A DNA stretch of 64,000 bases from NCBI GenBank assembly GCA_051362555.1, contig CM120640.1:38356788-38420787 (forward strand), written 5' to 3'. Source of the DNA: Lingula anatina (taxonomy: Eukaryota > Animalia > Brachiopoda). The translations under genes were made by a program, and so were the position numbers. Shown piece after piece: positions 1,625 to 64,000 of this stretch (position 1 is the first letter of the stretch; every line of letters starts with the position of its first letter). The notes beneath the pieces were generated by a model. That model had not been told where the DNA came from, made no database searches, and saw only the letters and a program-made list of their open reading frames with translations.

Positions 1625-1709
1625 AAAAAAAAAAAAAAAAAAACACACACACACATTTGTAATTCTTTATTGACATCTGATGAATTTACAACTGAACACA
1701 TTTGCTGAC

Positions 1710-4700: not shown

Positions 4701-7700
4701 TAGTAAGATTGACCACTCCTGTGAGTTTAATGACAATTGGCCTATCTGTTTTTCTTATATTGTGTTTACAGTGTTGCATATATGCTGAAAAATGAAAAAA
4801 CAGCATAACTACTAAAATAGTGGCCCGATCATGCCGATTTTCGAACTTGACCTGCGTTTTAGTAAGATTGATTACTCCTATGAGTTTCATGACAACAGGC
4901 CTAACGGTTTTCCTTAAAATGTGTTTACAGTGTTGCATATATGCTGAAAAGTGAAAAAACAACATAACTTCTACAATAATGGCCCGATCATGCTGATTTT
5001 CGAACTTGACCTGCGTTTTATGAATATTCATCAGCTCTGTAAATATAAAGCCAAAAAGTAAAACTGCCCTCCACTTATCGTGTTTACAAGGAAAGTGCAC
5101 GGCGCCGGCGACGGCATCGGCGACAACAGACGCAGGTGATGGCAATATGTACAGACACATCTGTGTCTGTACATAAAAAGGACATACATACTATATGGTG
5201 TGTGCAGAAATAATTTTTTTTTTTTGTGATGGTAGACAAACTTATTAGGCTCAAGTAAAAATATATGTAAAAATAATGACATATATGTCAAAGGCATAAA
5301 GCATGTATATTACCATTTATTAAAAAAAATTTATTCAAAACACAGACCTACCCATTGCTGAATTCTCAATTGTAAGATCTGTTAGTCTCTCATATTCATT
5401 CACCTTTAATAAAAAGCAAATTAAAGTGGTAAAATTCATTTGTTGATTGTGTTTACTACCTTGCACTTGCTGGAAACTGTAGAGATTATCTCAAAAACTG
5501 TAAGACATAACCAGACAAATTTTCATCCAAACCAAAGTGGCAGCTCCATAAAAGGATCTGAGAGAGAGAGAATTCCTAAGTAATTGCTTCTACTGTCACG
5601 TGTGAAATCTGTTTAAAATAGTTACCCCCACCAAGGTGGTAATGTTTTCACCCCTGTTTGTCTGTTTGTTTTTTGTCATCAACATAACTCAAAAAGTTAT
5701 GGACCGATTTTGATGAAATTTTCAGGAACTGTCAGAAGTGGGCCAAGGAAGAGATGATTAGTTTTTGGTGGTGATCCGGATCAATAATCAATCAATAATC
5801 AATAATAATCAAAAATTGCTGCCTTGGCGGAGGTCTGTGCTTTTCTAGTTAAAAATGAAGTGACTAAACTTGCCTCCACTTCTTCATCTAATTCTGCCAG
5901 TAGGTCTTTGATTAAAGGTATTGCTGATTTTTCTCCACATAAATGTATCTCATCTGCATTGACTCCTGCAAATAAAGGATAAAGGGATAATGAAAGTAAT
6001 CTAAGCCACATGACAATTTCTGTACATTTGACTGAGTGTGTGACTTGTGCTTTAGGTTTTCTTACGGAACTTTTGACTTAAGGCCTTAATATCAGTTGAC
6101 TTATTATCCTTCTGGCATTGAGAAGAATAAAGAAAATCTGGTGATTATAGGAGTACATTGGAAATAAGAGGATATGTTTTAATCTGATCGCATCAGCATG
6201 AGGTCCAGCAAAGCTGGATCAACCTATGTAGAATGGGAATGAGCCCATAGATTCTGATATTAATTGTTCACCATGCAGATATACTTTAAGTACTTGAAAA
6301 TTGCCTTCACTCTGTATCAGTTTACATTTTAATTTTTAGATCAAATGAGTCATGTATATACTTAATACCAAACTTTGGGACAATTTCTCCATTATTCCAT
6401 CAAGTTATTGGCTCAGTACAGTAAGAAATAGGCTGAATAATTTAGGGCTTTTGCAATGAGGTATGTGCTCCTGTAAATTAGAACTAGCAGTATTTGTTAA
6501 ACTCAATCTGAACCAGGGAACAGAAAAACGTTGTTTGTAGAAAGAGTATAGGGAGTTCGTTAAGGAGGATCTGCGAAATTACCATGATCACAAAAACAGA
6601 CACATATGCACTCATATTGGAATTAATTTCACTTTTTTAGTAAAAAAGCCAACAATCTTCAGAAAACAGACACTAGTACTATGGTAACCACTATGGTAAC
6701 CACTAAAACAACTACCACTACAACTGTAATGGGAAATAGGACTGTTACTACTATTTCTACTAATATGCTTACCCAACAATGCTCTTGTCCAAGCCCAGCC
6801 TCTGTTGTAATCTCTGATCATCTGGATCTCATCTATTACAGCAATTTCATCTGTGGCATTAAACAAAATGCATTACAATTTATACACCATAATCAAACAC
6901 CTATTACTTTATAACCTCGGTTAAACAATATAAATGCAATTGTGTGCAAAGAGTTTGTAGGCATCTGTAGTCAATTTTATATGTGCATACAGAATCACAG
7001 ATACTCTCACATGAAACTGCAATATATCTACCCTCTGATATCAGGGCCACACTTAAATACTGTACAAAATATCACTGAAGGTTAGACAATATGGCATGAT
7101 GAGACTACCCCACCTCTATCTGCCTCTTAAATGGTGGCTTACGTAACACAGACGTGGATGTGTGCTACTCAGCAATTAAGCGTGAGATCGTCCTCAATTT
7201 CAAATATAAAGGGTGTGTCTGGCAAGGAAATTATTCCTCCATATAACACATGGTTGCTTTCAACATTTTTGTAACAGACTACTAGTGCCCCCTGTGGTCA
7301 GAGAGTACAATATGTCCATGTCTGCATATAGTCACATAGGGCAATTTTGCTTATTCATATATTGGCTCTTGTTTGCAGCACTAACTACAAAATTGTTTCT
7401 AGAGAAAAAGAACGAAAGCTTTAGCATACTATCTTCCAGAGAACTCCCTATCACTAAGTCTGCTGAGCAGTGCAGGCACAATCTAACATGTATTACTTAC
7501 AGTCAACTGTTGTATTGACCATTTCAACAGTGCAAGCCACGTGATCTGAAATAATCCCATCTTCCTGAGCATACTTCCTCTCTTCTCCAGTCACTAAGTC
7601 ACAATAAGTACCCTAAAAATAAATCAATATTCATATTTAATGATGAAATTGTGATCTATTTTGAATATCTTTTAAAATTTTTTGCCAACAATTTCAAACT

Positions 7701-15395: not shown

Positions 15396-37398
<22,003 letters not shown>

Positions 37399-41800: not shown

Positions 41801-43265
41801 CACACAATGCAAATTAAAACACTGATTAAACCTCCCTAACTAAAAATGTCCTTGGTTAGTGCTTACTTTACTGGTATAGGATGATCTCCACTCCTGTTGG
41901 TATAGTTGACGACTGCATTAAAAGACTGGTTAATCCACTGCCAGAATATAACAGCTGGTGTTGACCTGATACAAGAAAAAAAAATTAACATTTAACTAGT
42001 CCTTGATTTTAATACCAAAGCATTTTATCTGAATGTCAATTTTGGTCCAGGAATATACCAGTATCTATAACTGTAACATTAAACATTGACAAAAAAAAAA
42101 TAGAATTTGTGTAGACTTCAAGCCTATAGCTAAAAATACCAGGGGGAGGAGGGGGGTTAACATTTAAATATTTTTCCTTACTTGTAGAAGGTCATCATAC
42201 ATCCTGTGATGCTCATGTTCATGGGCACCTGTGCTGACATGCGGCCAATGATGAACATCTTTTCCTTCGTATCTGGGTGGTAGGCAGAGTCATAGATGTG
42301 CTTGGCTCTCCAGATCTGATCCTCTGTAAGCCCTGCAGGCTCCTGGCCATTCCTGTTAAAATTGAGATCAATAAATCTTCTTCCTTGTACATATATGTTT
42401 CTCATTATATTCCAATAAGTTAGTTCCAAGAGATTTTCCGCATTCAATTTCCTTAAAAAATAACAATTTTCTCTTATTGAGAAATTTAATGCTTGGCCCA
42501 TCCTTGCACATGGATTAAATGATATATACCAATTCTAATTGTGGCCAGTCACTTAGACTGCAATGTTTTCCTGTACATTTCAGAAGCAAATATCGACATC
42601 AGGTACTTTTACTTGAGGGGTTTAATTGATTTTAAGAAAATAAACTGGGAAATATGATAAGTAGCTTTGCAGAATATGTAGCTATAGATAATAACACTAT
42701 GACTTTTTCAAATGCAAATATTATACCTCATATAAATACTTTTATGAATTTGTTAGATTTATCTAACATTTAAAAATATAATAATTGAAGTATATAATCT
42801 CGTTCCTAATTGTTCCCATGCAACATTTTGAGTAACATATTATTAGTCTTGATAAATAATTTGATAAAATATATTGTTTGCTTCTTTATAAGAGACAGTA
42901 TGCATAACATCATAAAATGTTTGGTTTGAAAATTAGATATAACTGAAAATGCAATTACTTAAAAGTACACAATTAAAATGGAAATAACTATTACAGAAGA
43001 GATAAACATATCAAAAATTATCCAAATAGCACTTATTAATGATGAATATTTGAATATGAATGTTGAAATTGAATATTTCTTACCTGTATTTCTCTACCAA
43101 GATCTTTGCTTCTTCCAAAGTTTTATTGGAACAAAATAAATTCAGTGGATTTGTTGTGATGAAGAAGTGCTTGGCTCGCCCACTAAAAGTATTCTGATCA
43201 TATCGTGGTTCATCCAAGTTAATGCGTGGTCCACCACTGACCTGAGAAACTGTTGCAGCCTCCAT
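38879..43265 (-). CDS. SFXN1: Sideroflexin (SFXN1/SFXN3 type), mitochondrial inner-membrane transporter, 328 aa
   Basis: Exons: 43265-43084, 42352-42182, 41965-41867, 41506-41431, 40529-40444, 40182-40055, 39863-39814, 39629-39580, 39431-39384, 38975-38879 (987 nt). Motifs include [63 protein letters not shown] and C-terminal VYFNKGL. It is probably co-orthologous to SFXN1 and SFXN3. Confidence 0.96.
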
Positions 43266-43878
43266 TTTGACTTTTTCTAATATTTGATAATTCCCTTACT
43301 TCATTTCAATCAAACAATTTCAAATGTCACAGCTGAAAACAATACATGGTTTAATTAACATGTTTTTATTAAATTCCAGTTATAGTTATCATAATTATAT
43401 TGAATATCAGTTAATGCAATAAAATGTGCAAATAAAATACATATTTTATCCAGCACTTTAAGTTTTAAAACTGAATCAAAATCATTCGCCCGTGATAGTG
43501 CTGTTGCACATAAAATATCAAAATGCAATGAACTTTCTTTTTCTGTTGCACGAGTCGTCAGAAAATCGTCATTCGTTTCTGATATATCCTTGCACGACCT
43601 ATACAAAATCTGCAAACAAGTGTTCACCATATGTTAAACTAACAGAAACAGAAGGTCATAAGACAGTCTGTATGGCAAGAATCTTGCATCAGTCACTGAG
43701 ACAACACACATCCTCTGTGTATTGTTTATGTTATTAATTCATCGACGATTAAAAAAAATTGCAAATCGATGCAAGCAAGATGATGCATAATGGAATTAAT
43801 TACAATACATCTTACCGCAAAATATTGCTTTGCTCGTAAAGTGCTTTGCTGTAGTAAATGCTGCACGCATTCACTTAC

Positions 43879-44030
43879 CTTGGTCTTAATATGTGGCTAA
43901 TAGCGATGATGCAAACACCCACCACATGCCAGCCAGTCTCAACCGGAAACACAACATCAGCAATTCTCCGCACTTTCTTTTTGTCATCATATTATTGGCC
44001 CCTGTGTTTTCCTCTAAGATTTGCGTCAAA
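43879..44030. promoter_or_regulatory. Putative bidirectional promoter and non-coding first exon of the sideroflexin, adjacent to the TMEM128 start
   Basis: The sideroflexin ATG exon has a splice acceptor at 43333-43334, and a strong minus-strand donor (AAG|GTAAGT) lies at 43878. The TMEM128 ATG at 44031 sits in a YY1-like CAAAATGGCGG. An ETS-like ACCGGAAA lies at ~43942. Confidence 0.55.
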
Positions 44031-46689
44031 ATGGCGGACCGTGGAGACGAGATTCGGCAGCGGGTTAGACATAAAATGCAAGAAAATATGTACAGATCTA
44101 TATTTCCAGGTACTCCTTACGTAAACTGAAACAAATTAATGTGATTGCGTCTGGTTGAGAGAGTATGGTGAGGTGATGGGGTTCTTTTTAGATTCCCCTC
44201 ACTCAGTCTTTTGTAAAAAACCTGTACATACTGTTACTGAGTGTGAGATTGGAGTACATGTACCAGAACTGAAGCTGCAAAATGTGTGCACCATGATAAT
44301 GCAACATAGATAAAGATAACTGGCGTGGGGCGTGGTGTCGTCAAGCGTCATTATTACGTAACACAAATAGGTCATACATTTAACGACATTATGATACACT
44401 GACAAACTAAGATTGTGTCAAGTACTCTATGTAACTTGAGACTTTGATTATCTGTGGACCATTGATTCAGATAAGTCTGAACAAATGATATTTCCTTGTT
44501 TCTACTAGTTCTGTCCTGGGAATGTATTTTAGAAATACAATAATACAGTTAGCATTATCATGAAAATATCATTTCAACAGTTGTCACACTGCTTTGAAGA
44601 ATATTACATTATGTCTTGATACTTAAATTTTCTGTGCAAATCTCACCTGATCCCTCGATCCTCCCCTCCTTAACTTGCCAAAGTCTCAAGCCATGCAGTG
44701 GCAAGGTTAACTGTCCAAACCCCTTTGTTATAGATCCTACAAAATAGTAATGATTATTTTAAAAATAATATATATTAATGGAGTCTGGAAGGTCCAGTTA
44801 TTGTCTTAATTATGATCTAATCATGGTTAAGTCATTGTTGGTGTGTTTAGTTGGATATGGATGCTTGTGACTGTGCCATTTTATTTGTTAGCCTCCAAAC
44901 TTACCTTGGGATCAAAAGTAAATGAATTGCCAAACTAATTTATTTGACTAGCCGAGACATTACTCAGAGTCACCACACAAATTGATTTAGAAAAGATATT
45001 GAATATCACAGAGTTATATGGTGGGGGAGAATGCTGCAAGAGTGTCTAATTCTTACCTCATTCTTGAACCTGCCCCAAATCCTGTTCTGTAAATTAATCT
45101 AAACCTGCCAGTGAAAATGCTCTGGTTACTGGCCAACAGTCGGTATGTTAAACATTTTTGCCCACCTATACATTTGTATATCATTCATAATGATTAAAAT
45201 TATTTATACAGTTGTATATGTCTATTCTTTTAATATATTTAGATCCAAAGGTTGCTGAAGAAACTGAAAAGAAATTGGAGAAACTGAAGAAAAAGTCATC
45301 ACCTTATAGCATCCAGAATGTTTGTTGGCTTATTGCCTCTATGGCTGTATTTTACTACACAGACTTATATCTGGCAATATTATATGACAACAGGATCAAC
45401 AGGTAACAAAAAATGTCATCTTGATACATGTAGTACATGTGTCTGAGTTTATTTTCTGTGCAGTAATGGTAACTGAATTTTTTGAGGTGTAACTCTGTTA
45501 AAATAGTAATGTTATTATTTTGCCATAGCACACCTCATAAAAGTAAAGACAGTTTTTGTTTAGTACTTTGTTTAGACTTTTTGCATGGAGTATTGTTTTA
45601 ACATTTATCACTTTAAAGTTAGGCAAAAAATGTTGTCTGGGTGCCACTCCCATCCATTAACAAAATAATGGATATGCCAGTTTAAAAACATTTTTTAGAT
45701 TTAATGTAAAACTTGTACTAGTAATTGACTTGGGATGTCCAGGTGCTCCTTGTTTTTTCATAATCATAAGTTATAATCCAGTTTTTGAGAAAAATCTAAG
45801 CCTAAATTAGTTTGTCATTCTCCATCATTTCAGACTTTGGCTGTACCCTGGGTTAATATCAATATCCATAACGGTCATGATTGCTTGTTTCCTAATAGTC
45901 TGGTTGTCATATATCAAGAAAGTCCCAAGTGATGAGTGGGAGACCAGATACCCTGCAGCTATTCCAGTGTCCACATTCTGTTTCATTCTAGGCAGTGTAC
46001 TGTAAGTTAAAATACTATGAGAAAGGTTGCATAACACTGTTATGAAATAATGGCACTTTTTTAAAAGCCTGTATATAACATTCTCTCTGGACCCCCAGTG
46101 TCTAGGTGGATGATTTTTCATCCTCATGACCAACACTGGCCACTGGTCAGTGTCCTGGTCATTTTATTCATCAGTGACCACTGTCCATAGTTTTTGGGCT
46201 GAGGGTGCAACAGCATCTTTATAAGCATTATCTGTCTGATGATAGATCATGGGTGATGACTGGTTATGTTGAAAAATCTGTTGATTTTGTTTTCGCTCTA
46301 TCAAAATTCAAAAATTGATGTAGAAGATAATTAGATATAGAACATTTTATATAATCATATGGAAGATGAAGGGTTGACATTGGGCTTGAAGGGAAAAGTA
46401 TTGAAAATGCAAAACAGTTGTGTAACATTTTTCTCTAAAATGCCACCTCCTCCATCTCTAGCACCAAATATAACATGTTTTGAAAGAGTCTCATGCTGCT
46501 TGGGATTCAATTTGTCATAAATAACTCCTAAGTTTTCTGTCAAATTAAATGACAAATTGAATTCTTATTATTTTCAGGGTCATGATAGGACTGTGGCCTG
46601 TTTATGCCTTCCTTACTCCATTTATCCTGTTCACAATTTTCATGGGAGTTATTGTGGTGGCAGCAGCTCTTCCAGGAAGTATATTTTGA
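44031..46689 (+). CDS. TMEM128: Transmembrane protein 128, 172 aa
   Basis: Exons: 44031-44109, 45243-45402, 45834-46001, 46578-46689 (519 nt). There are four hydrophobic segments and the family motifs WLIASMAVFYYTD, WETRYPAAIPVST and LWPVYAFLTPFILFTIFMG. Confidence 0.88.
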
Positions 46690-48734
46690 AAAATAAATTA
46701 TGTCATTCACATTGGACTATTCAACATGAGAAATATAACTCTATTACATGTGATATCTTACTCAAAACATGAACCTATGTTTATGTCTTGAGTAACAAAA
46801 CAAAAGAAAGTTCACATTTGCTCTGGAATATTTTCTTAGTATTATCTATAAGCTATTGACCTTGCCTATCAGATTTTATGGCAGCTTTGCAAAGATATTG
46901 ATTGAATAAATATGTGATTTGTAGGTTGTAAATATATTGTATATATGCCAGCATACACTTGAAATTGTTTTCATAAAATACATATTTTTGTTGTTCACTG
47001 TATTCTTTGTATGTTTTACCCTGATGTTTGAGAGTGTTTGGTGAATTTAATTTTAAAATGTTTATTCACGGGTAAATGGCTTTTCTGTTTCTGATTCTTT
47101 TAACAAGACATAAGAAATAGGCATATATAAGCTGTCTCAGAAGTAAATCATAATTTATGCTAAGAAGGCAATATTTTGATACCAGATAATGATATTTTAA
47201 AATATTCATTGAATTTTTATTTTTATTTTAATTAAATTCCTTGGTTAATCTCTATGGATGTCATTCTTATTTTTCAGACAAAATATCTTTATGTCAAACT
47301 AGTACTGAGGGTTGTGTACTTATTTCCCCCAAAAAAAACATATATTAATTCAACTTTGGTTTGTGATTATCTTTACCACATTGGATATGAATTTCTAATC
47401 AGCATAGTGCATTGGTCAATTCTTAGAAGCCAAGCCTATTTATTTTTTACTCTGTCTTAATGATATGCAATGCATGTTATATTTTTATGGTACAAAAACA
47501 ATTATAAATGATAACTGAAAATATCAATATTCTTTTCACCATCTGAAAGTATGTTCTATCAAAAACTGCTGAAAAAATATTTTGAAAAATCTATAAACTT
47601 GTTCTTGAGATAAAAATTTTGCAAGTAAGATCCACCAATCTCCATTCACATTATAAGTTAGAGTGACTCATGAATTCAAAACATTATTCTCAAAAACAGG
47701 TTTGAAGACCATACTTTGTCTCCAGATGAGGATATTGTGTACCTTAGTGATTAAGGGAAAAATTTCAAGTTTTTTTTATGTGTATTTAGGTGTTATTGCT
47801 TTAAGGATCTTTTTTTATTTATTCAGGAAGGTAAGAATGACAAGCAATATTAACTCTGTAATATAGCATATTGACTAATAGTATGTGTTTTTATACCAAC
47901 ATGTTTATACTGGAAAGAGAGATATATGTAAACAACTCTCAGCAGTGTATGATAACATTAGTGACCTTTTTACATTTCCTTAAAGGAAAACAATTGTCAC
48001 TTCCAGAATGACAGAAATCCAATTACAGAGGTGACTTTTTTTATTTTTGATATAAGGAATAATGCAATTAATCAAGACAACATGGTTCCTATAATATGGG
48101 ACTTGGGGATAAGTGTACATAAATAATAGGATGTTGTGAGGATTCACTGCTCTGAATTAAAAATATTTCATTTGAAGATTTTATAGTAAGGTTTATTTGT
48201 TTGAAAGTTAATTTTAACAAACATTCATTTGAACATTATTATAAGCTGCAAGAAAAATTTTTTCAACACCACTCTAAAACATCTTTTTTTCTTTTTCATT
48301 AGGGATGGAAATATGGTTCTGAATGAAAAAAATGCTCAAGTGGTTTAAGTCATAATATTTCTGCATGGTATTTTGAAATAAAATGATATAATTGTATTAA
48401 AAAAGGTATTTCTTTCCATTTTTAATCCCTTGATTGTCCATCTAGCATTTCAATGAAGTAAAACTTTAATCAGGAATGTGTGTATAGATAGATAGATATA
48501 AGATATTATTAGTTTTATACTAGGTTGGAAGGAAGTCTTGTATGCATAGTCAAGCCCTTTCTGCAGATTATCTCAACTTTAGTTTTGGGGAAAACATCCA
48601 AATTCATGCCAACTAGGCTCAAAATCTTTCATAAAGATATAGTCACCCTATTTATTTTGATAAAATGCTGCACTTCACTTGTTTCATTTGTTTGGAAATG
48701 ATTATAGGGAGTGTAATGAACATCATTACACTCC

Positions 48735-48737
<3 letters not shown>

Positions 48738-48795
<58 letters not shown>
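48738..48795. repeat. (TA)n microsatellite
   Basis: Read directly from the sequence. Confidence 0.95.
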
Positions 48796-48799
<4 letters not shown>

Positions 48800-49164
48800 T
48801 CACTGTTGGTTTAATTTGTATTGCTCCAATGCAGAGGAAAATGAATGCCTAGAAAGGGAGGAATCCTTACTTGGGTAGATCAATAAAGTGAGGCTTCTTT
48901 AATATGTTTTGACATTCTATCAACCAATTCCTCAGTCAGTGAATTCTATTTTTCCTCATTTCCTGTCAGCCTTAATTAGTTCCTTTATATTTTATTTACT
49001 TTGTTGCTTACTGACAACTATTTGCACTTAAATATGTGGGTTCAGGTTTGACACCATACCTCCTGCTTCCCTTTGCCATTACATAATGATTATAATTATT
49101 TTTAAAAAAATATTCATACAAACATGCACATAAACCAGTGTGTTATTGAGAGAAACTGCAAAAA

Positions 49165-52100
49165 AAAGACAAACTGATTTTCTTGCATTTATTGTTAAAA
49201 GAAATTCTGTTGCACAAATTTCCAAAGGTCATAAAAATGAAGTGGAAAGTATAAATAGTTATTAAAGTGGCCAAGAGAACTTGGTATTTCTGAATACTAT
49301 GTGAGATGGATCTTGTTAAAGAGTCCATTCACTGCTTTAAAAACCAATCTACTTATAAAACAAAAGCCTGCAAACAGCAGCTGCTCATTATAATGTATGG
49401 CTTGAAATAGTTTTTAAAAAAACATACAAATACCCAATCATTCCAAATCCAACAAAAGTCTAACAAAAAAACTCCCCAAATACAAAAAAAGTGTATGAAA
49501 ACTGGTTTCCAATTGTACACTCGTTTCCATGCATCTAACTAAGTGGAAAATATACTAGGATTATTCTCATATTAACAGAGAATAAATGTTCAACTGCCAT
49601 AAACATTACTAATCTACCACTAGGTTTAAAAAAGTTCACAATTCCAAAAATAATCAGAACAGAAAAATAACTCAGCCATTTACTTTTTTTAAAGATAACT
49701 TAAATCTTTTTTTAGTATTCCTGCAAAATATGTGATAATACTGTAATAAGTGTTGAATGTATCTGATGATTTTATCACCTGTTGACCCACTTGATTGTAG
49801 ATCTCCACTACACAAACATCACTATGAAACATGAAGGTGCTATCAAATCGACCTGAATATTAATGCAAAATCTATAACCAAACATTCAAGTGTCAAACTT
49901 GCAAATTCTATATATTAAAAAACTATAACTGTCACAAATTATGAAAGTGATGTTGGAATAATATTTTACTTATGCTACAGCTACTTGTTATTTGGGCACA
50001 TACCTATCTGGCCTAAAGGTAAAATACCTGTCTTGTGCTACAGACATTGGAATATTTTGGGATATCCATAGTTCTAGTGTATTCTAATAAATGTATTAAA
50101 ATTTCATATTGCACACAATTGGCTTGCATGCTATAAGCATTTATCAGCCTGCAAAGCATTTTTCTCATAGAATACAGCCATACCAATTCCCAGAATGGCA
50201 TGGCTTCCAGTAATACTTCCAAAAGACCACAATATGACAGCATGTATAGCTCTAATACGTCTATATTGTCTGTCACTGCGAAAATTGCCTGCCTTACATT
50301 CAGCAGCAAAGGCAAGTCATGTAAGTACCTGATAGAGATTGTGTAGCACCAGTTGGTACACAGCAGCTCAGCCACTCCTACGTGACTCGTGCCCAAATAG
50401 CCAGGAAACCTGCAAATCACCACAATTCTAAATGCTCAGAAAAATACAAAATGTGGAATATTGTAAATCCTGGTAATGTAACATTCGGTACAAACCACAA
50501 GATATATGAAACATTGTTTTTAAGCTCCTTTTCTCTCTCATTCTCTCTTCATAAAAAAACTGTCAGCTCAAAAGTAGATAATGTACATGTATGCAAAAAG
50601 CTTACTAATATCCCAGAAAAAATAAAATTACCCATTTTCCTACCATAAATTATCTTGTGTGCTGAATTAAATTAACATACATCTTATATAATATCATTTA
50701 CTTCTGGGGAATAAGTTAATTCAAAAATAGGACAATCATCTCTGATTTCACATATATTCATGTAAAATGTGGTATTAAAAGCTTCTGCTACAAATAACCT
50801 CAAAATCCAATAACACTTTAACAGCTACAACCTGCGGACAACCCAGAAACCACACACAAAACTTACATTGTTAAGGAAAACAACACAGAACAATTGCAAA
50901 GTGCATAAGCATTAATAGAAAAAACAGCACATGAATTTAAATATTTTGATATGTCAAAACCCCTAGTATTTTTTTATATATTTTTTTAAAAATAATTTTC
51001 TAACTCAAAATTAAAAATTGCATGTACACACTAACATGCTCTCTTTCATGTATGTTTAACATATAAATAACCAGGTAAAAGTCTTCCATCATGAGGTACT
51101 AGAGACATAGTGCACCTATCTGATACAAATTGTACATTTTAACAAAAGATACACAAATCACTCTAGTACCAAATCAGTTCCATCATATATATACATATAT
51201 CTGGTGACATTTTCCCTAAAGTGACTGCCCTCCATGCAATGGGTTAGTGTTAACTGATAACATATTGAGCAAATAAGAGGGTTCACAAACAAACTGATAC
51301 TCTAATATTGAGTACAAATATTAAAATTGCACGGTGGACCCACACAGGTCAGCACTAGCAAAAACAAATGAGACATGGCCCTAAAAGGCAACCAACAGAT
51401 GCCTATAATATGTAATCATAACACTGCACCAGAAAATAAATTAAAAGGCTTAGCCTTCCCAGGAATGGAAGGTTCTGTCACATGTTAAAACAAAAATCAC
51501 ACTAACCAGCAAATTGCAATGACTTAAATGGGTTAAGGGGGAGTAGAGTTCAACTACATTGGTCACAGTTAATCACAAAATGGCACAGGGGTCATGGCAC
51601 TAAACACCAGCTATTGGGATGGGAGGGGGGCTTGCAAACTATCTACCAAAATTATTTGCACAGTAATTATCCATTATTATGCATTAAGACATCAAGATGG
51701 GTTTATATATTGTTTGACAACCGTGGGATTACATCAGTATTCATGCAAAGTTAAGTACCAGGACATCAATCAGTTGACTACACATTACAAAAACTATATC
51801 AATCATCTCTGAACCTGAATATAGAAATATTACCACAGCAGTGCAAAGGAGTTTACCATAACTCTGTGACTAGACAGAACTCATCAAGACTTGTTATCAA
51901 GTATAAAAAAATCTTTTAGACAGTTCCTAGAAAATGATTGTCCACTGGTTACTTTTATGGTCAGTGCTACCATGTTTTATATGAATGATAGAGTTCTTTT
52001 TTTTTTACAATGGAAGGCTACTACTTTTTTTACAAAGTACAAATTTTTGTTAGGATACAAAAAGCTGAATCTCATTGCTTAGTAATATAAATAATAGTTA

Positions 52101-52520
52101 TGTGCATCTGGATGAGATACTGTTGAGGAAGGTTCATTTAAAATTACCATTAATTCTTTGGTATCTGAGATCAAGCCTGATCAATGAATCTGAGATTACA
52201 TCTGTCAATCACAATTATATTCATTCCAGTTGAGGAACTACTCATCCTGTATTATATGTCGGTGTAGTACTATGCACTACTGAAACAGGCACCTGACCCA
52301 TGAGGTTAATAATAAATTAGTGATAGGACATTAAAAATTTAAGCCAAATATTAACTAAATGCATGCTGACTGGTTGTGTGTGCTTAACATCTATTATGTC
52401 ATCTGTAGCACAGGACTTCCCTCCACCCAGCTGAACACTGCATGTCACATCACACTTTTTTGGTCTGGATAATATGAGGTAAAGCAAGAACAGGAATGCA
52501 TGCCTCTCTAGATATTTAAT
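49165..52520 (-). promoter_or_regulatory. Putative ~3.3-kb U-rich 3' UTR of the CPEB gene
   Basis: The stretch after the stop codon is repeat-free and U-rich on the minus strand. A candidate AATAAA lies at 49193-49188. The 3' end is a guess. Confidence 0.5.
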
Positions 52521-55500
52521 CTAGCACCATCGAAATGGTACTGCCCTGGGACGATCGGCCCCTTCCTTGACTAGTGGCTTGTGGAATTCCCGTCCTGGGC
52601 GCGAGTGGATCTGGGCCCAGCAGTGTTCACAGTAATACTGCAGGCAAGTGACATTGGCGCAGAAGAAAGGAGCAAACTTGCCTCCACATCGGGCTCCCTG
52701 GCATTCATCACAAAGCTGGTCATCTAACACATAGGGCTTCACTTCAACCTGGATGATAAATAAGGGGGATATTAAAAATTGCTGTAAATTAATTAAATTA
52801 CCAAATAAGAACTTTGCAGAGCAACACTATGCTGAACACAAAATCTGTGCATCTATAATGGTTATCAAGCCCAGGTCAAGAATTTTTCATCTTTTCCTCT
52901 TTTTTCATATGATCTCTACGACCTTATTAAAGAAGGTCAAGGTGAATCATCCACAAAGTCATCCAAAAGTCTCATGAGAGGTTTGTGTTCCAAATTATGT
53001 TCTTTTCTTTTTTTTTAATCTCCCCATTCACAAGTATGAGACGTGGATTGAAAGAGATAGATGGGTAGACCAAGGGACCATTCACAGACCCTATTGTACT
53101 GTGGATTGATCTATCTCCGAAGGGATTCTCGCTAAATTGCGATCAACTTAGGCGGCTTAGATGACTGTCACTCCTACTGAAACTGCTAGGAGGTAATTAA
53201 TTATCATTTAGTAGTTTCAGTAGGAGTGCCAGACATCTAAGCTGCTTAAGCTGAAAGCAATTAAGCAAGAAACCCCTCAGATATGGATCAATCCTGTTAG
53301 AACGATCTAGGTATGGGAACCCAGCCCAATAGATTTTTTTTGCATCCTGCCATACCAGAAAAATGCCATGGTGCATAACTATTTTTTTAGGCCATAATGT
53401 AAGGTTTCACTGAAATTGATTGAAAACTGCAGTAGATGATATGCAGTTACAATTGCACACTGCAAAAGAAAGCACCCTTATTGTATATCATTGTGCAATT
53501 ACATAAAAATCGTATTTAACTGCCATTTATTTCTGATTCAGTGCTTATCTGTAACTCACAAGCACTAATATTATATTGTTATGTAACACAAAGCAACAAA
53601 AAAAGGGGTAAAAAAGTTATCAGTGCACTGCTGCATATTGATTGGTACAATCCCTTCAGAGAATTTACCTACATAATTCAGACACGATGTTCAATAATGT
53701 GTTCAGCACAAGAGCAATCCCCAAAAGATTACTTAACATTTCCTGTAATTTAGCCACTACTTCAGGTTCTAAGCTTCTAAAATCACTTTGATTGGGGGGG
53801 GGGGGGAGGGGGGGGGGGAAGGAGTTCTCATGCACTTCAATACACAAGCTCTCCACAAATACTTTACGTGACAATTAACCTATGCCTTACCCTTTTATCT
53901 ATGTCTCCATGCTGAAGTTGTACAAAGCGAGCACTGATAGCTGCTATGTAGCTCTGCTGGTTGGAAAAAGCAACTCGTCCTGCTCCTTTTGGATATTTCA
54001 ACTCGGGGTCAGTGTCAATTCCAGCATAGCACACACCTCCATACAGACGGTCCATGATCATGGCCAGCTCAACTGGAAAAAAAAACACAAAAGCTATCTC
54101 TTAAACCAAGCCGTTTTCACAGTCAGTATGACCAAAATATTTTCAAAAGCTCTATTAAATATAGCTTTGCATGAAACCAGAAAGAAAACAAAATATTGTT
54201 TGTTTACATTTTCACCTCTCAATGTAAATTCACCAAGTCTACAAGCCCACTTGCAAAGGTTATAAAAACAACAGGGTATCATTGCAGGTGCCCTTCAGTG
54301 CACAACCAACCCTATCCCTATCTGCCTTTTCTCATGTGGTCTATTTGGCTAACAGTCAAACACACAGAACAGATAGCACTATATAAATTGCTGAATGTAA
54401 TATAATCATGTGTAAGCCAATAATCTCCCAAGATTAGATTTTTTCATAATTTCAGTAAATGTGAACCTTCATACAATATACATGAAATCTGCTTTGAAAT
54501 AACCAAAAACACATTATCAGAAGAAATAAATTATATCAAGAAATATGACATGTTTTGTGATTTAAACAGACTTGCAAATGAGGTACAAACTTTGATATCA
54601 TAGCTATAAATATAATTAAAAAAAAAAACAAATATGTAAGAACTTAAGGAGTAATAAACCACCAATGAGCTAAAAATGATATTTTCCCATACCTGCTCTC
54701 AAAGGTCTAGGTACTCCCCCTACAAAAATGGTCTTCCTAGGATCAAGTGGTTGAGAGCCATCCATCACAAAGTCTGAGTCACTCAAGTTCCACGGACGAA
54801 TCTGCACCTGATAACATGGGCAAATTTAAGTGTAGTTTATTTCAAAAATAATAATATCACTTTAACATGAGCATATGATATTGTATAATTATTTCAGTAA
54901 ACTCTGAAAACAGTCAACAAAATTTACAAACATCTATGCTACAAATTAAAACAGCAAAATCAACACATGGAGAATGTTAGCTTTAAATTCAGCAATTAGC
55001 AGATTCCAAAAACCAGTATATCGGCACATGTTTAAATACCACTTACAATAATAACTGATCAACTGACTATAGCACATTTTAAATATCTGTGGGGAAAAAA
55101 GCAACTTACTGGTTTATCTTTCATGGTCGGGCTTGATACACACCAATATAACTTGCCATCATCAACAATACATGCATCGATTAATGCCTGAACAGACAAC
55201 TCATCTTGGAACAGTAAGAAGCAATATCCTATTAAAAGAAAAATGTTTTTTTCAAAAAAGGAGTAATGAGAGGTCAAATGATTCAAACATCCATCTTTCA
55301 ATAATTAAACCAGTATTTTCTTTCTCACATTTCAAACATTTTTACAAAAAGCTATAACATAGTTGGAAACCACAGTAGTAAAGTAAGCAAACCAAATGAT
55401 CATTTACAAAATGAAAAATACAAAATGTACCTTTTGGAGGAAAGTAAGATTTGCTCTCTGCTTTGTGGGGCCAATCTACAACCAGAGGTCCAAATCGCCT

Positions 55501-58500
55501 AAATGCAGCAGTTATCTCTTCTGTGAAGCAAAAACAAGATTGGTTAAAATAAAGACCTGGTATGTTTTGGTTTAAAATAAATATGTGAATGATTTCAATA
55601 CCCATTCAGTTACAGAAATCTCACCCTTAAGAAAATACATACATATCCTTTATTCCTTACCTTCATCAATGTCAGGTGGCAAGCCTCCAACGAAAACCTT
55701 TCTGGAAAATCTTTCTACCCTCTCCATGCCGGCTTCAGTTCGAGGAGACCCACTTGAAGGGGTTCCCAGGCTTCCAGGAACAGTCTGGTCCAGAGAACCA
55801 TCCTCAAGGAGGTGATGATCTTCCACAAAACCAAAAGGAGATTTCCCTTCAGGTAAAAATAAAATTACATTCGTTTTGACAAAAAGTACATAAAAACTGC
55901 TCGAAACATTCAATATACTACATTAATTTTGTGATAGCTGAAATAATTCTTTAAATGAATAATTTAATCATTTTAATCACTTTTATCATCTCTTCGATAA
56001 ATGAAAAGAAAAATCAAATGAAATGGGCACCAAAATGAGTTGACAATAAAATTTAAACAAAATGGATAACAAATATACTTTGTTTATCAGTGCTACAAAT
56101 AATAATCATCTGTTTCTAGATAATAAATATATGTTTTAAGCTGAATTATATTAGATTAATATAACCAGTAAATATTTTTTGTAGAACTGAATAATGTATA
56201 AACTCCTTGAAAAAGTCCAAAATATTGCAAAAATACCTAAATTGTACGAGAAAATATAAAAATTTTATCTGTTACAAAAAAGGGCCAATGATAAGAATAA
56301 CAATAAACAGATACATTAAAAACTGTTTGAAAATGTTTCAAACCAAGAAAGGTACAACCATATGACTTCAGTAACAACATAGATATGGATAAAACATCAA
56401 AGTTTCCACAAGGTTATTAACGTTTTAAACAATGGCCTCTATTCAGAAATCATGATATCATCTTAGGCAAATAAAAAATATGTGTAGCAAATATAAGTTC
56501 TATCTGATTTTGTCCCCTCAAATGCACCCCTAACATCATGACATTAACCCCCAAAAAAACATCGATATAATAACTCTTAATTCCTTTCAATCCTCTGTGT
56601 GATATCATGCACCAAAAGCCTATGATTTGTACTACTTCAAATGGGTAATGTGGTGCACAGAATATCCAAATGATGAAATTAAAAGATTTGTGCAGTTATT
56701 GGCAAAGCTATACAACATAATACAACTGACATTCTGAATAGTTCTAAGTCAAACACAATGATGCTAACATATTATAAAACACTAGAAATCTAAATATATG
56801 AAATAACTGAGGTACATTCAAAATAATAAGTCATTTCTTTTTATTTCAGCAATTATTGTACTGTATTTTTCTTAAAATAACTTTGTACCATTTTCTAACC
56901 TTCACAAGTCAAAAGATTCCATATATTTGCAAAGTAAGAATGCATGAACAGAATAAATTGAAGGAAAAACAACAGTATATTATATTTAATAAAAAATTGT
57001 CAAAATAAGAACAGGATTAAACAACATTAATATAAACATCCAATGTAGAATTACAAACAACCCAGCCTCATTGATATAAAACACATAACTGAAGCAGTTC
57101 TGAGCAAAACAACACCTATTGTGTACCTCTGCGTCTTCCATAAGGACGAGCTGCTCATGTAATTGAAGAAAAGAAGTTATGTACCTCATAAATGTGTAAT
57201 ATCCAATAGATGACATAAAAGACTAAGAACACTGCTGTGCACATGCTACCACAGGCCAAAGCAAACAATCTTATTTCTAGCAAGGACTGGAGGATGGGAT
57301 TGAACTAAATCTTCCTGTGCTAAATTGGATTTACTGTGAAAATAGTAATTCTTTCAACATAGCTTGAAATGACGCAAGTTGGAAGGCAGGAGCTAGTGCT
57401 GCTGAACCACATACAGGTCACTCTACCCAAAATGCAACCTTTCAGTTCCCAACTAGCCCAAGGCTGTCACATCTTCAGTGCGCATTATGGGTTAAAACAG
57501 AAGCATGAAGACTGCTCAGCTTGATAAAAACCGTGTGACATAAACCTTTCAGTTATTAGAAATGCTTTTTGCTTTCTAGTGAGTGAAACTTTTCTGAATG
57601 CCAAATTACTGAATGCTTTACCAAAGTGGTAAGATAACATCTTAAATGTTTAGACTACCAATAATAAAACATACATGACCAAAGCATAGTCCAATTACAT
57701 CTTTAAAGAATTATTTGACATATGAAATGGTAACAAGGACATTTAGGACAGATACATATATCTACTACTGGTATAAGTACATGGCAATTTCATTGAACTG
57801 CAGTTGTACACATTTCTGTTATACACAGAGTGCCATTACATTTCCTTACGTCTGATCACAATGGGTTGATATTACTTCATTTATCAATATGTCTTGAAGC
57901 ATTGTCTCAACTATCAAGCATATAATGAAATGACGAAGAAGTCTTAAGAATTATGCTATTTCTACCAATATATTGATCGGCATGGTCCATAATTACTTTC
58001 TACTGACTGTGAAATCAACCCTTCCACAAGGGTAGCAACTGTGATCACATGCCTTACAAAAGTTATTGATCTCCTGAGAAGAAAGAGTTAAGAATATGAA
58101 TACTGAGTGTAGATTGTGACAGAAAATGTTCAATAGTCTTTAACATCAGTCTTTGTCATGACCATTCTCATCTCTAGCAGAATTTGGTCATTAGACAGAT
58201 AGGCATAATAAATTGCTTCTGAACATGCAAAACTCAGGTGAGTACAGTATGTTACCATATGGCAAATAATAATCCCCTGAAATAAAATATTGAATACCTG
58301 CACATTTGTGGTTACTTTGCAACTTTTCACCTGTATTTTGCATACTGATGATGAATAGCTTATTACTCTGCAGATCCTTACACTACCGGGGGGAGAACAG
58401 GAAAATCCCTGTCAGTATACTGGTTCACCTCCAAGGACTGTCTTATGCCTCAGACGATGTACCAAGCAGCCAATATAACACTCAGTTTCAAACATTAACA

Positions 58501-61500
58501 GCGTGCAGACTTCACATTTAAAACACAAGTTGAAGTGGTATATTTCTAACAACTAAATGACTTACATAAAAAAGACTTATTGAAGAAATATAGCCCAGTT
58601 TTTAGACATTGTTGGTCTGCTGGTGTTTAAGGCAAAGGGGGCAAAAAGCTGGCCTGAAATATTTCACAAATGGCTTTTGATCTTGCCTTCAACACTATTC
58701 TCTTAATGCCTTATCTGAATTGATTCATTCAAAACACTGAATCAAAACATGTTTTTCAGTTCTTTTTCTGAATATGTATCACCTTAACTGAAATCCTAAA
58801 GTCGTGCCTCATAGCCTCTCTGTATGACCATGCACTTCAAGGTTTAAATGAAGTTCAAATGTTTTAACTTTATATACTAGTACTAAAACTGACCACATGA
58901 AACTAATAACTAGGATTTATATCTTTATCTAGATATCCTGTTTACAAGACAGACTTGACCACATGAAAAACGGTGTGCTACTAACAGCTGGCACACCTAT
59001 GATTGGTATTTCAGTGAACACTCAACCATCATGTAGTATATAATATACAAGAAATAAACACATATTCAACACTTTATGGGATGCTTGTTAGTTAAAAACT
59101 GTTTGAGGGATTGTTTAAAATTGTTTCCATGGTTTTATTTCAGCTGACAGTCCAAAATCCATAACAGAAACAACACTGGGTGAACTTGAAATGTTCTACC
59201 TGAAATAATCAATGGGGTTTTCATGCATAAGAGGAGGTGTTTATGCTAGCTCTGAATAAAATAACCAATACAACAGGCTATTTATATTCAGAAAAGCCTT
59301 GACAAATATATGGAGAAACAACTTTTGTAAGAACTTAGCTGAAATCCATCTGCTAATTTTAGACCTACAAGTAAGACACAACAAGAAAAAAAAAACAAAC
59401 CCTCACATTTAGATTGCTTTTTTATAAAGTAGGGTCAGACAAGATTTATCTAAATTTAAATCATAACAGTGGTGTGGAATAAACTGCCTCGGCTATGATA
59501 TATTTCCACTTGTTCTCAATAGAAATTCTTCCATGTTCAAAGATGGAAATACGTGTATTGATTTTTTAATACATTCTCAGGCCTACACATATCTATACAA
59601 AGCAGCCTGCAAATGGCAAACACCCACACTCAATGTGAATAGAACCTAGTTTCGAGATTAGCTCTGACGTAAATGCCTGCATCACACTTCACAGTTAAGA
59701 ATATAAATTTGATTATAGACTACAAGCTTCACAGAGCTTGCCAGTAAATTTAATCTTAGTGTATAACATATACATATATCCAGTGAACCTATATGAAATC
59801 CATGACTTTGGTTGAACTACATTGTGGCCTAAAGCAAACCCAGGTGACTGGGTTTCAGAGCTGACTAATGATATTCGAGATATGAAATTGGGGACATATC
59901 ACTATACAGTGGATGAAAGATTATGAATGCAAAACTAAATGCCCCAAGTATATGTATGTACAGAATAATTTTCATTAACATTCTACTTCTCCAGCCAGCA
60001 TATTTTGGTCCCACTGATGAAAGTTATTATGAATGCCAAAAGTATTAATAGGCAAAATTTGTGAAACTCTTCCTAATATGAAAATAGGAGCACATTATCA
60101 TTTCAAAGTTTATACATACAGTACTTGACTAATGCCAGAACAAGAAATGAAAGCATTAATTTTAATCAGAGATTATATCCAGATTTAAACTAAATCCAGT
60201 TTACCATACTTAGATAAGTAATATATGCCTTCTTAAAGAGTATGCTTGAACATTTTGGGATATCAGTTAGCTTGTTTTATTGACTTGATATACATATAGT
60301 ATTCTACCTTTGAAATTTGCTTGTTGCTGATGCTGTGGCTGCTGCTGTTCCACTGCAGTTTGTCGCATTATATCAAGCAGCTGGCTCTCTAGGGTTGGGA
60401 ATCGCATGCTGTCATAATTATTTTGATCCTGAAAGAAATTGGCAGATGTGGTTTTATTGTAGAAAAGAGGGAATGACCAATTAACCAAAATTTCATATCT
60501 GTATTTCATGAAGTCATACAACTTACCAAAAGACCCATATTATACTTCTAGCGGTAAAAATGCCCGTAAGTTTCATTATATCTTTGGGTGGATCCTCAAA
60601 ATACTAATTAGGATTTACTTATAGAAATGCTGTGGCATCAAGACATCTGTCACAAACACAAGCTCTGCATAAGCTATTTATTTGTGTCTGAAATCAATCC
60701 ACAGCTGCTCAGAGCTCCAAAAATCTGTTGGTCAATATTAGGAGAATAAAGGTTGGGTTACTGAAATGACCTTTCAAATCTCATATATTTAAGTGCTAAA
60801 TGAAAATTTAGTAAATATGTAATCTTAAATTCTATGTTTTTGCTTAAGTGATCAGAGACCTTGATCATCATAATAAATACATTATTCCTTAAAAGAATTT
60901 CAAGAGTAATGTTATGATAAAATGTTATATACCTGCATTCCACTCATCTGATTCATTGAATTTGCTTCATCTACACTGCTGAAAGTCTCAAAGCCAGGTT
61001 TAGTTGCCATCTGTGGAGGTTGTTGCATGTGCCCTGGATATGAGGTACTTCGTCTAAATTTGGACGGGGTGAGGAACATGTTTTGTTTTCTCATAGAACC
61101 TCCCATTTGGGCAGGGTTAAAGGTTGGCATGTTTGGCACAGATCGCCGATTTGGCTGAATATTACCCCACATATTAGCCTGCTGCTGTTGTTGTTGATGC
61201 CCAGGCCAGGACTGGTGTGGGGGGTTACTCCAAGAGGGATAGCCTTTGGAGTTATTCACATAAACATGGTTCCCCATATTTCCAGGCTGATTTCTCTGCT
61301 GTCCAAACTGATTGTGTGTCCCTCCAGTTATGGCCCTTCTTGGTGGCTGGGCTTGCTGAGGCATTCCCATACTCATCTGAGGGGGAGCAACATTAGTGTT
61401 AAACATTGCTGGGTTAGTTGGGGGAGGAAAATTTTGAAATGTTACGGTTCCATTGAGAGCCTGAAACCCCTGAAGAAAAGTATCATCAATGGTTGCTGCT

Positions 61501-61910
61501 GAAGACCATGGAGCTTGGCTAGGCAACGAGTTTACCATAGCACTATTCACAGAAGCCGGGTCGACAAGACCAACAAATTCTGTAGTGGTCACTACTGTTT
61601 GGGCAGGTGCTGCAGACTCAATATTTTTTTCATCTTGTTGCTGGGGGGATTCGATCTGCGTTACGTTAACCGTATTGCAGGGCGAGTTCTGCTCTGGACT
61701 CTGGCTATCTGGAGTTGGTGAGCTCTGCTCTGTACTTACTACTGTTTTCTCAACCTGCGTTTCATGACGATTTTCATGATCTTGCATTGTGCTGGTCGAA
61801 GATGAGACAATGTCTGCTGAAAACAAAGACTGGTTGTTCGATAAATTGTTCAATCCGACTGGTGATAATACTCTTATATTGGAAGCCAAACTCACTCCGT
61901 AATCCCCCAT
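52521..61910 (-). CDS. CPEB4: Cytoplasmic polyadenylation element-binding protein of the CPEB2/3/4 (Orb2) subfamily; 672 aa, or 680 aa with the microexon
   Basis: Exons: 61910-60933, 60428-60308, [57150-57127 microexon], 55846-55661, 55520-55431, 55228-55110, 54807-54693, 54072-53891, 52748-52521. The protein starts MGDYG and has a Q/P/N-rich N-terminal domain and an LESQLLDIMR NES-like motif. It also has RRM1 (RFSRKVFVGGLPPDID..DWPHKAESKSYFPPKGY), RRM2 (KTIFVGGVPRPLRA..YPKGAGRVAF), a ZZ finger (CDECQGARC..CANVTCLQYYCEHCW..H) and ends in PFRWC. It is co-orthologous to CPEB2/3/4. Confidence 0.97.
53073..53327. mobile_element. Palindromic MITE (most complete copy) in the last CPEB intron
   Basis: The central inverted repeat is CACTCCTACTGAAACTGCTA / TAGTAGTTTCAGTAGGAGTG, with imperfect outer arms. 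It is homologous to 22165-22384. Confidence 0.8.
57127..57150 (-). CDS. 24-nt frame-preserving CPEB microexon encoding (A)RPYGRRR(G)
   Basis: The minus strand reads ...acttcttttcttcaattacatgagcag|CTCGTCCTTATGGAAGACGCAGAG|gtacac. It is phase 1-1, matching the flanking exons, and the peptide matches the vertebrate CPEB2-4 8-aa microexon. Confidence 0.88.
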
Positions 61911-62926
61911 CAAGTTTTTGGCAATAGATCTCTTTTTAAGTTAGTCAGATCAGTCTTCAGGGGAATTTTTTTTGCTCCAGATCGCCACGTCTGCTGGTGT
62001 CCTTTTGCAACGCACGATACTGTGGCCTCGGTATCGAATATTTCTTTTCGCCGGAGGTTTCTGAATCACCAATATGTGAATAAAATATTTCAAACAATAT
62101 ACTTCCCCCTACTCTACGTTATATAGTAATTGTATTAGATTCAGTTCGATATCATCTATAGTGTGGAAGATAATCATAAGTATATTTACGTTGTGATACG
62201 AGTATTAAGAAAATTCATCGCATAGGGTGCCTTGAAACTGACGACGTAAGGTCGCTTTAGGTCGAAGGGAAACAGGATAATGACCTTAGGCTAATATTAC
62301 CGATTGTACAATTTAACATTCGCCAAAAATCAGATAATATACGTGAAAATGTTTGAAAAAAACATATAATTGTGTTGTTATTTGTTGCTTCGTTTTTTTT
62401 TTAACAGTATGTGCACCTACAGTGGTTTATGATAAAAATATTCCAGTGGGAAGATAATGTAATAATTCACCTTTGACCTACTGGTATAGTGCCCAGGGAT
62501 GGAGGATCATATGGATGTAAAACTAAAAGCATTTCCTGCTTTATAATTATATTAATGATAAGAATGTTAGAAAGTGATATATATTTTTTGACTCAGCCAT
62601 TATAGATTCATTTTTTCTTTTCACTATAAACTTATTTTTGTGTGGCCGTTGTCACAATTATTGGAGGGAAGAAACACGTACTGCACGTACTCGATCCTTT
62701 GCACTATTCATCACATGTCCCTGTAACAAAGGGCAACAAAGTAAAATCCTAGGTATCAGTATCCCCCCCCCCCCCCCCCTTGAATTCACAACTTACAAGT
62801 CTTTGATTATTTCTACATTTCATGTGAGATATTTTATACCTTTATTAAAATATTTCATTTCATTTATCAGAAGTCCATTCTTATTCAAGTACTTACTTTT
62901 TCATTATTCATACAACTTTTTTGATG

Positions 62927-62928
<2 letters not shown>

Positions 62929-62985
<57 letters not shown>

Positions 62986-63180
62986 CTTGTCTTTTTATAA
63001 GTCTCTGAAAATTTAGATAAAAGAATACAAAAAATGAATATTCTTTATAAAGAAAAAGAAATTCTTTAGTGCATCTTTGGCCATTTTAAGTGATGCGTCA
63101 TGCACATTCAGTTTTTGTCTAGGCTACTTCAGTATTTTATTGAAAAGATGCATATATAATATATGTACAGGTAGGTGTGC

Positions 63181-63211
<31 letters not shown>

Positions 63212-63232
63212 TGATGATGATGATGATGATGA
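62929..63232. repeat. (TTA)n and (ATA)n(ATG)n microsatellites
   Basis: Read directly: (TTA)n at ~62929-62982 and (ATA)n(ATG)n at ~63181-63232. Confidence 0.9.
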
Positions 63233-63384
63233 TTGTGGTGATGATAAAAAACTAAAACATCAAATGCCAAGTTATAAAGAAAATAATAATATGATGATGA
63301 GGATAATTTTTGTAATAATACAAAAAAACTAAAATTTCAAGTGACAAGTTATAAAGATAATGATATAAAGTTATGACATAGATC

Positions 63385-63418
<34 letters not shown>

Positions 63419-64000
63419 GCTTATTTTTCTGGGTAATCAAAAAGAAAAGAAAAATCGGAAACACGTGGATTGACTTTCAACTTACAAGTACCCCTGTAGA
63501 CTTACTGGTACTTACACTTCACCAAATAAAAAATATTGATGCCCTAGGCCTATTTTCGAGAAAAAAAACTGAAAATTGTTTTGGTTTCTCCATGAGGAAC
63601 GACCACGTACCGGTACGTTCTCTAAAAATTCATAGAGATATCGGATATCAAATTATTTATATCTTGCAAAAAATTTGGAAAGCCTCATTTCTTTCTTGCG
63701 TTGTCTGGATGATTTATAAATATAAACAAAAAAGAAAAGAAAGAAATAGAAAAGAAAAAATGCCGATTCAGTGGACGGTAAACTTTTAAATCTGTGACCC
63801 CCCCCCCCCCCCTCAATCCTTGTTTCCGCTTTTGGTTACTCGGTACACTAAGGGATTATGGGAGTGGGGAGAGTTAGTTCCGGTTTGATAATGGTAACAT
63901 GGACTGACCTTATTACGAGTTATCGAGAGACCTAGCTCTTAGTAAACATTTTACGCGTTCTATATGGCTGACTTTTTATAGGGTCAAAATGGGTGTTTAA

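Follow-up and report, generated by a model that had tools for sequence, protein, structure and literature searches.

A cassette exon of 24 nt in the CPEB2-4-type gene of the brachiopod Lingula anatina: a likely orthologue of the vertebrate CPEB2/3/4 microexon and a predicted splice switch

The question raised by this locus was whether a 24-nt exon lying in a long intron of a Lingula anatina gene is the counterpart of the microexon that is reported for all three vertebrate paralogues CPEB2, CPEB3 and CPEB4, how old such an exon is, and what its inclusion would do to the protein. The window analysed was the whole stretch of 64,000 nucleotides on contig CM120640.1 (positions 38,356,788 to 38,420,787, assembly GCA_051362555.1). 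The reading preferred here, with a probability of about 0.6, is that of an ancestral optional exon of 24 nt, orthologous to the CPEB2/3/4 microexon and predicted to act as a splice switch that adds an arginine patch before a serine. The exon, its phase and position, a skipping junction in RNA, and gene models with and without 8 residues across phyla form the observed basis.

The host gene was located by tblastn of protein P0001 on the window and by Pfam (RRM_7, RRM_1 and CEBP_ZZ); its whole coding span covers 52524..61910 on the minus strand. Coding exon 1 (60933..61910, minus), which encodes a disordered N-terminal region rich in Q and N and lacking a histidine cluster, matched Lingula anatina CPEB2 isoform X1 at 99%. 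Coding exon 2 (60308..60428, minus), both junctions of which were supported by reads, carries the motif LESQLLDIM, presumably an NES as labelled in the preliminary description, and ends in phase 1. The downstream exon (55661..55846, minus) comprises the GKSPF target motif, a linker and the start of RRM1. In the skipping isoform both exons are joined across an intron of 4461 nt (55847..60307, minus; 3157 nt + microexon + 1280 nt), for which 31 junction reads were obtained from 4 runs.

The Lingula protein was aligned to vertebrate CPEB2 with 210 invariant columns. In a midpoint-rooted tree of 26 RNA-binding regions, which held no CPEB4 or CPEB1 row, vertebrate CPEB2 and CPEB3 formed one clade (99/95) apart from all invertebrates, so that the Lingula gene is best called a putative pro-orthologue of CPEB2-4, written here as CPEB2/3(/4). 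The earlier designation of the exon as a CPEB4 counterpart was thus sound as to homology with the vertebrate CPEB2-4 microexon and too narrow as to the paralogue, since the exon occurs in all three.

The microexon is a cassette of 24 nt in phase 1/1 at 57127..57150 (minus), defined by sequence and by the difference between the RefSeq isoforms X1 and X2. It is preceded by GAGCAG and followed by the donor GTACAC (57121..57126, minus), which is probably weak against the donor consensus. The acceptor region (57151..57175, minus) contains a short pyrimidine tract about 25-15 nt upstream of the acceptor. The acceptor itself is a tandem GAG/CAG (57151-57156, minus), and splicing to the upstream AG would lengthen the exon to 27 nt (AARPYGRRR), with no sign that this form is used. 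Read with the G of the upstream exon end, the microexon encodes ARPYGRRR and yields the joint FK-ARPYGRRR-GKSPF upon inclusion versus FK-GKSPF upon skipping. The AG/GT flanks, the length, the phase and the pyrimidine tract were confirmed from the sequence. An AG/GT-flanked 24-mer was rejected as significant by itself, since 16 were present in this intron and 17.0 were expected from simulated introns. The 7/8 identity to the human CPEB4 peptide, likewise confirmed, was a different matter: identities of at least 5/8 were reached in 0/2000 simulated introns. A search of the intron for a second cassette exon, of the kinds present in vertebrates, nemerteans and arthropods, left 221 open candidates when ranked by a crude splice score; none was recognisable, and the microexon itself came 17th.

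The exon had been described as hidden and easily missed by annotation. Contrary to that guess, RefSeq already carries both isoforms: X1 (XP_013420563.1, 680 aa) corresponds to the inclusion model and X2 (XP_013420564.1, 672 aa) to the skipping model, the latter being the former minus exactly the 8 microexon residues. Two of the three members of this cluster were compared.

Among 303 proteins compared, isoform pairs differing by exactly 8 residues at a site 52-56 residues before RRM1 were found in 16 invertebrate species, most of the pairs being predicted gene models. They belong to Lingula, Lineus, Liolophura, two Octopus species, Mercenaria, Ruditapes and Dreissena among the non-arthropod protostomes, to the chelicerates Tachypleus, Nephila, Parasteatoda, Larinioides, Argiope and Centruroides, and to the hemichordates Ptychodera and Glandiceps, and thus cover a brachiopod, a nemertean, a chiton, octopus, clams, spiders, a scorpion, a horseshoe crab and hemichordates. 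An ARxYGRRR-like basic peptide was retained in 13 of the 16, with the variants ARAYGRRR, ARTYGRRQ, xRGYGKRQ, ARSYGRRR, ARNYGRRR, ARGFGRRR, ARSCGRRR and TRTYGRRR. In the remaining three, all clams, the length was retained and the peptide had diverged (ALNFKQKL, ARNFRQLL); in the clam isoforms P0067, P0068 and P0070 the cassette at this site still has 8 residues and is less basic, and the next serine is lost. The corresponding vertebrate joints are ARSYGRRR/TRSYGRRR-GRSS in CPEB2/3 and ARTYGRRR-GQSS in human CPEB4 (bioRxiv 10.1101/2023.03.19.532587). The Lingula exon shares with them a CPEB2-4 host, a frame-preserving length of 24 nt in phase 1/1 between AG and GT, the pattern [AT]R-x-YGRRR and a position directly before the G-x-S exon leading into RRM1; the vertebrate length was taken from the available text of papers and the vertebrate phase from protein junctions rather than DNA.

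The motif was then counted in proteins spanning the site, after fragments that fell short of it had been dropped and nameless records grouped by cluster or likeness; the rows are not independent and were drawn partly from a search that favoured included forms. It was present in 87/102 vertebrate, 2/4 hemichordate, 16/34 chelicerate, 3/5 myriapod, 5/7 nemertean, 4/11 cephalopod and 1/2 chiton proteins. It was found in 0/35 insect, 0/25 gastropod, 0/17 pteriomorph and 0/17 other bivalve proteins and in the one annelid protein (0/1). Such absence from protein sets is weak evidence for a putative loss in insects and gastropods. The preliminary description had named Aplysia as a place to look for the peptide; the single Aplysia model is without it. 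Short insect isoforms (P0251, P0268, L007, L014) begin with or contain MFRAYG, like the start of the octopus peptide, ARAYG, which may be chance. An N-terminal profile search for further phyla gave 29 matches and no new named invertebrate group.

In metagenome assemblies the peptide was in place in 3 of 80 loci. One of them, L001, is an intron-free contig from another animal that grouped with spiralians (81/97); its peptide is identical to the Lingula ARPYGRRR, and 6 of the 24 nt are changed, all synonymously. In the second, L056 (genomic, arthropod-like, outside the tree), ARKFGRRR is followed by the same phase-1 donor, and an intron of 181 nt separates it from GKSP. No acceptor was found upstream of the peptide, which is fused to the previous exon; the microexon appears to have been fused here by intron loss. 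L015, from the arthropod clade, is built alike with a 55-nt intron. In both contigs (L056:141-346, L015:22-101) ARKFGRRR continues upstream coding sequence that includes SLNFHA, and only the downstream intron is kept. Of the 97 representatives that reached the site, 9 fitted a looser pattern; they include an exact match of vertebrate type and, before GKSPFF or GKW, a few remnants that are basic but diverged. Basic sequence that has diverged was also noted at this position in P0315 and L011 and in P0307, P0370, P0317 and P0321 (AGLFRRRR before GKW; ARGFSRRK; ANLPRRR; GRFNRKR). When 13 genomic metagenome loci were scanned upstream for the exon, no convincing candidate emerged.

A separate clade of loci (L005, L008, L010, L022; 99/98) is without the peptide, and the similar genomic locus L057 has no intron from the LLDI motif to RRM1. 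These loci are taken as putative cnidarians by inference only; as the tree backbone was also poorly supported, a bilaterian rather than older origin of the exon is only suggested. Descent from the protostome-deuterostome ancestor is, on the sequences compared, very probable, and orthology of the Lingula exon with the vertebrate CPEB2/3/4 microexon is likely. The idea that the exon predates the split is supported by the models with and without the 8 residues across phyla.

RNA reads were taken from 4 of 9 runs of the same species for the region 55715-61100, with about 6 to 30% of each run read. The skipping junction 60308->55846 was supported by 17, 9, 4 and 1 reads, 31 in total. The inclusion junctions that had been proposed alongside it were not listed in these runs, which came from coded tissues and for which a junction was listed from 3 reads per run upward; no inserted letters were listed at the skipping joint, and read depth in the bin holding the microexon was zero. 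A count of 0/31 corresponds to an inclusion below about 9% if detection is complete, and a 24-nt block may anchor badly in mapping. Skipping dominates in the four samples, and inclusion in neurons is compatible with these reads. Inclusion in Lingula is given by the predicted RefSeq model and is probably confined to a minority of the cells, with neurons as the likeliest. Runs X7 and X9 differed from the window by near-fixed changes at 60337, 55773 and 61005, with a 3-base insertion in a glutamine run, and would represent another population or a cryptic species; X1 and X4 were without these changes.

A UGC motif near the 3' splice site characterises the microexons that depend on eMIC/SRRM4 (PMC8797185). 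The Lingula exon was not placed in this class, as no UGC was present within 90 nt of the acceptor and the nearest TGC lay at -91; a GCATG was located at -96. The human exon me4 of CPEB4 is itself only partly SRRM4-dependent (PMC12628316). A search of 47000-64000 against Rfam returned 3 matches, all far under the gathering score, and no CPEB3-type ribozyme.

Inclusion would add an arginine patch ahead of a serine near the RNA-binding domains and turn G-K-S-P into R-R-R-G-K-S-P, a predicted basophilic or R-x-x-S-P kinase site. The kinase patterns R-x-R-x-x-S and R-x-x-S-P both fit this string. The corresponding mouse CPEB3 exon is mainly neuronal and required for phosphorylation of S419/S420 by PKA and CaMKII, with S420 preferred (PMC4767366). 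Upon inclusion in Lingula, the first of these serines and arginine at -3, -4 and -5 are retained, and the second serine is a proline. Of 16 invertebrate genera with the basic peptide, 15 retained the S419-equivalent serine, which is the third residue of the next exon, and in all of these it is followed by proline; of 22 bivalve and gastropod genera lacking the peptide, only 2 retained it. This contrast in molluscs reflects two or three evolutionary events rather than 22, and few events overall are independent. Insects had Ser or Thr at the site in 11/11 genera, all without the exon, and the chiton has the peptide without the serine. Because invertebrates have Ser-Pro in place of Ser-Ser and PKA prefers the second serine, the PKA site would not be conserved as such; the proline speaks for proline-directed kinases more strongly than for PKA. 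Phosphorylation of the predicted site would tune translational repression. CPEB4 in N2a cells was little phosphorylated, depolarisation made no difference to this, and the phosphorylation was dispensable for condensate dissolution (PMC11711090).

The serine and histidine distributions across exon-bearing animals favour a predicted splice-gated phosphorylation site tuning translational repression, a function to which slightly less than an even chance is given. An alternative with the same ancestral exon holds that its arginines keep CPEB condensates liquid, aromatic or acidic residues taking the place of the histidine cluster. It is modelled on human me4, the arginines of which contact the cluster and prevent aggregation (PMC11711090), and it would account for the arginines and the aromatic residue being the conserved positions of the peptide and for the chiton, in which the serine is missing. 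The histidines nevertheless make it unlikely: the Lingula N-terminal region has at most 3 per 24 residues, against 9 for the human cluster as read by eye off the sequences in bioRxiv 10.1101/2023.03.19.532587; the range is 3-5 in ten further invertebrate proteins that bear the exon, and 17 were counted in a damselfly protein that lacks it. On these counts, the mechanism in its CPEB4 form cannot be the ancestral one. It does not simply carry over to Lingula, as judged from the protein sequences, and the Lingula exon was not filed under it. Arginine contacts within condensates may operate in parallel with the kinase site.

That the exon is minor or non-neural outside vertebrates, linked to a stage or to the germline, with neural regulation arising in vertebrates, is a possibility of somewhat greater weight, though a doubtful one. 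The missing inclusion junctions and the missing UGC motif are in line with it, as are the fusion of the peptide to the upstream exon in at least one arthropod contig (L056) and the absence of CPEB from the main text, as available, of a 2026 survey that sampled octopus and centipede (bioRxiv 10.64898/2026.09.05.749416). Yet a neuron-limited exon would likewise give skipping in bulk samples, and the survey demanded an insect member. Far less credit is due to convergent exons at a splicing hotspot, or to gene-model artefacts copied from vertebrate proteins, a very improbable account that is already largely refuted. Independent recurrent exons at equal positions are reported as common, and further unrelated cassettes of 7-37 residues were observed in the same intron (equivalents of 55847-60307) in vertebrates, chelicerates, insects and nemerteans; the predominance of predicted models would also suit this account. 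Against it stand the agreement in length and phase and the near-identity of the peptide across five invertebrate phyla and chordates, the simulated introns, the included form in the intron-free contigs L001, P0080 and P0083 and the purely synonymous divergence of L001 from Lingula.

Other genes of the window were noted as follows. A single-ORF DXD glycosyltransferase (PF04488; 30249-31391, minus) lies between exon-like ORFs of a plus-strand ALMS-motif gene (~23244-36288) and is apparently nested in an intron of that gene. Exons of sideroflexin (minus) and TMEM128 (plus) are arranged head to head at 42181-45403, adjoining the CPEB gene, and SUV3 helicase exons occur near 1456-6872. Human CPEB and SFXN paralogues are located on common chromosomes.

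No account of the microexon in invertebrates was found in a full-text literature search, within the text available; supplementary exon tables may list it. The peptide string was found only in papers on human CPEB4. The word invertebrate was not found in the available text of PMC11711090, nor CPEB in that of PMC8797185 and PMC12992808, and no account of the invertebrate exon was present in the available parts of PMC10284499, PMC8011179, PMC12626424, PMC5544531 and PMC13487878. The survey mentioned above names only APBB1/2/3 and MADD as carrying bilaterian-ancestral neural exons; its supplements may list the CPEB exon. The deep age of the CPEB2-4 microexon thus seems unreported in the literature searched.

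A wider reading, put forward tentatively, would rank the CPEB exon third among bilaterian-ancestral neural microexons and make it the only one of them with a disease link, its loss from insects explaining why it had escaped notice. As the exon would be older than the CPEB4 histidine cluster, its first job would have been the R-R-R-G-K-S-P phosphorylation site in neurons, and the anti-aggregation role that is lost in autism would have come later. In octopus, spiders and acorn worms this reading would be testable; flies and sea hares, two classic memory models, belong to lineages apparently without the exon. Between phyla, the rewiring of neural microexon programmes is reported to be almost complete, and an autism- and schizophrenia-linked exon that stays near-identical from brachiopods to mammals would stand out as a rare exception. 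The natural variants (no histidine cluster, Ser-Pro, divergence in clams, fusion in an arthropod, apparent loss in insects and snails) separate the kinase-site from the condensate-stabiliser mechanism and indicate invertebrate models in which both can be tested.

Among known systems, the RefSeq models of Lingula CPEB2 X1/X2 contain the same exon by automatic annotation, the records, seen by name only, being silent on homology, age and regulation. The exons of APBB1/2/3 (6 nt) and MADD (9 nt) are likewise in-frame microexons common to protostomes and deuterostomes (bioRxiv 10.64898/2026.09.05.749416); they are neural by RNA-seq and kept in insects, whereas the CPEB exon is longer and was not found in 35 insect proteins. 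Mouse CPEB3 exon 7 or B-region and its CPEB2 equivalent have, like Lingula, R-R-R-G-[KR] before the S419-type serine, and the S420 preferred by PKA and CaMKII is a proline in Lingula and in 15/16 exon-bearing invertebrate genera (PMC4767366). From human CPEB4 me4 (PMC11711090; bioRxiv 10.1101/2023.03.19.532587) the Lingula exon differs in its host, a single gene of pre-duplication type without a histidine cluster, and in Ser-Pro instead of Ser-Ser, but both are 24 nt long, follow the LES-L-DIM motif, agree in 7/8 residues and are succeeded by an exon beginning with G-x-S.
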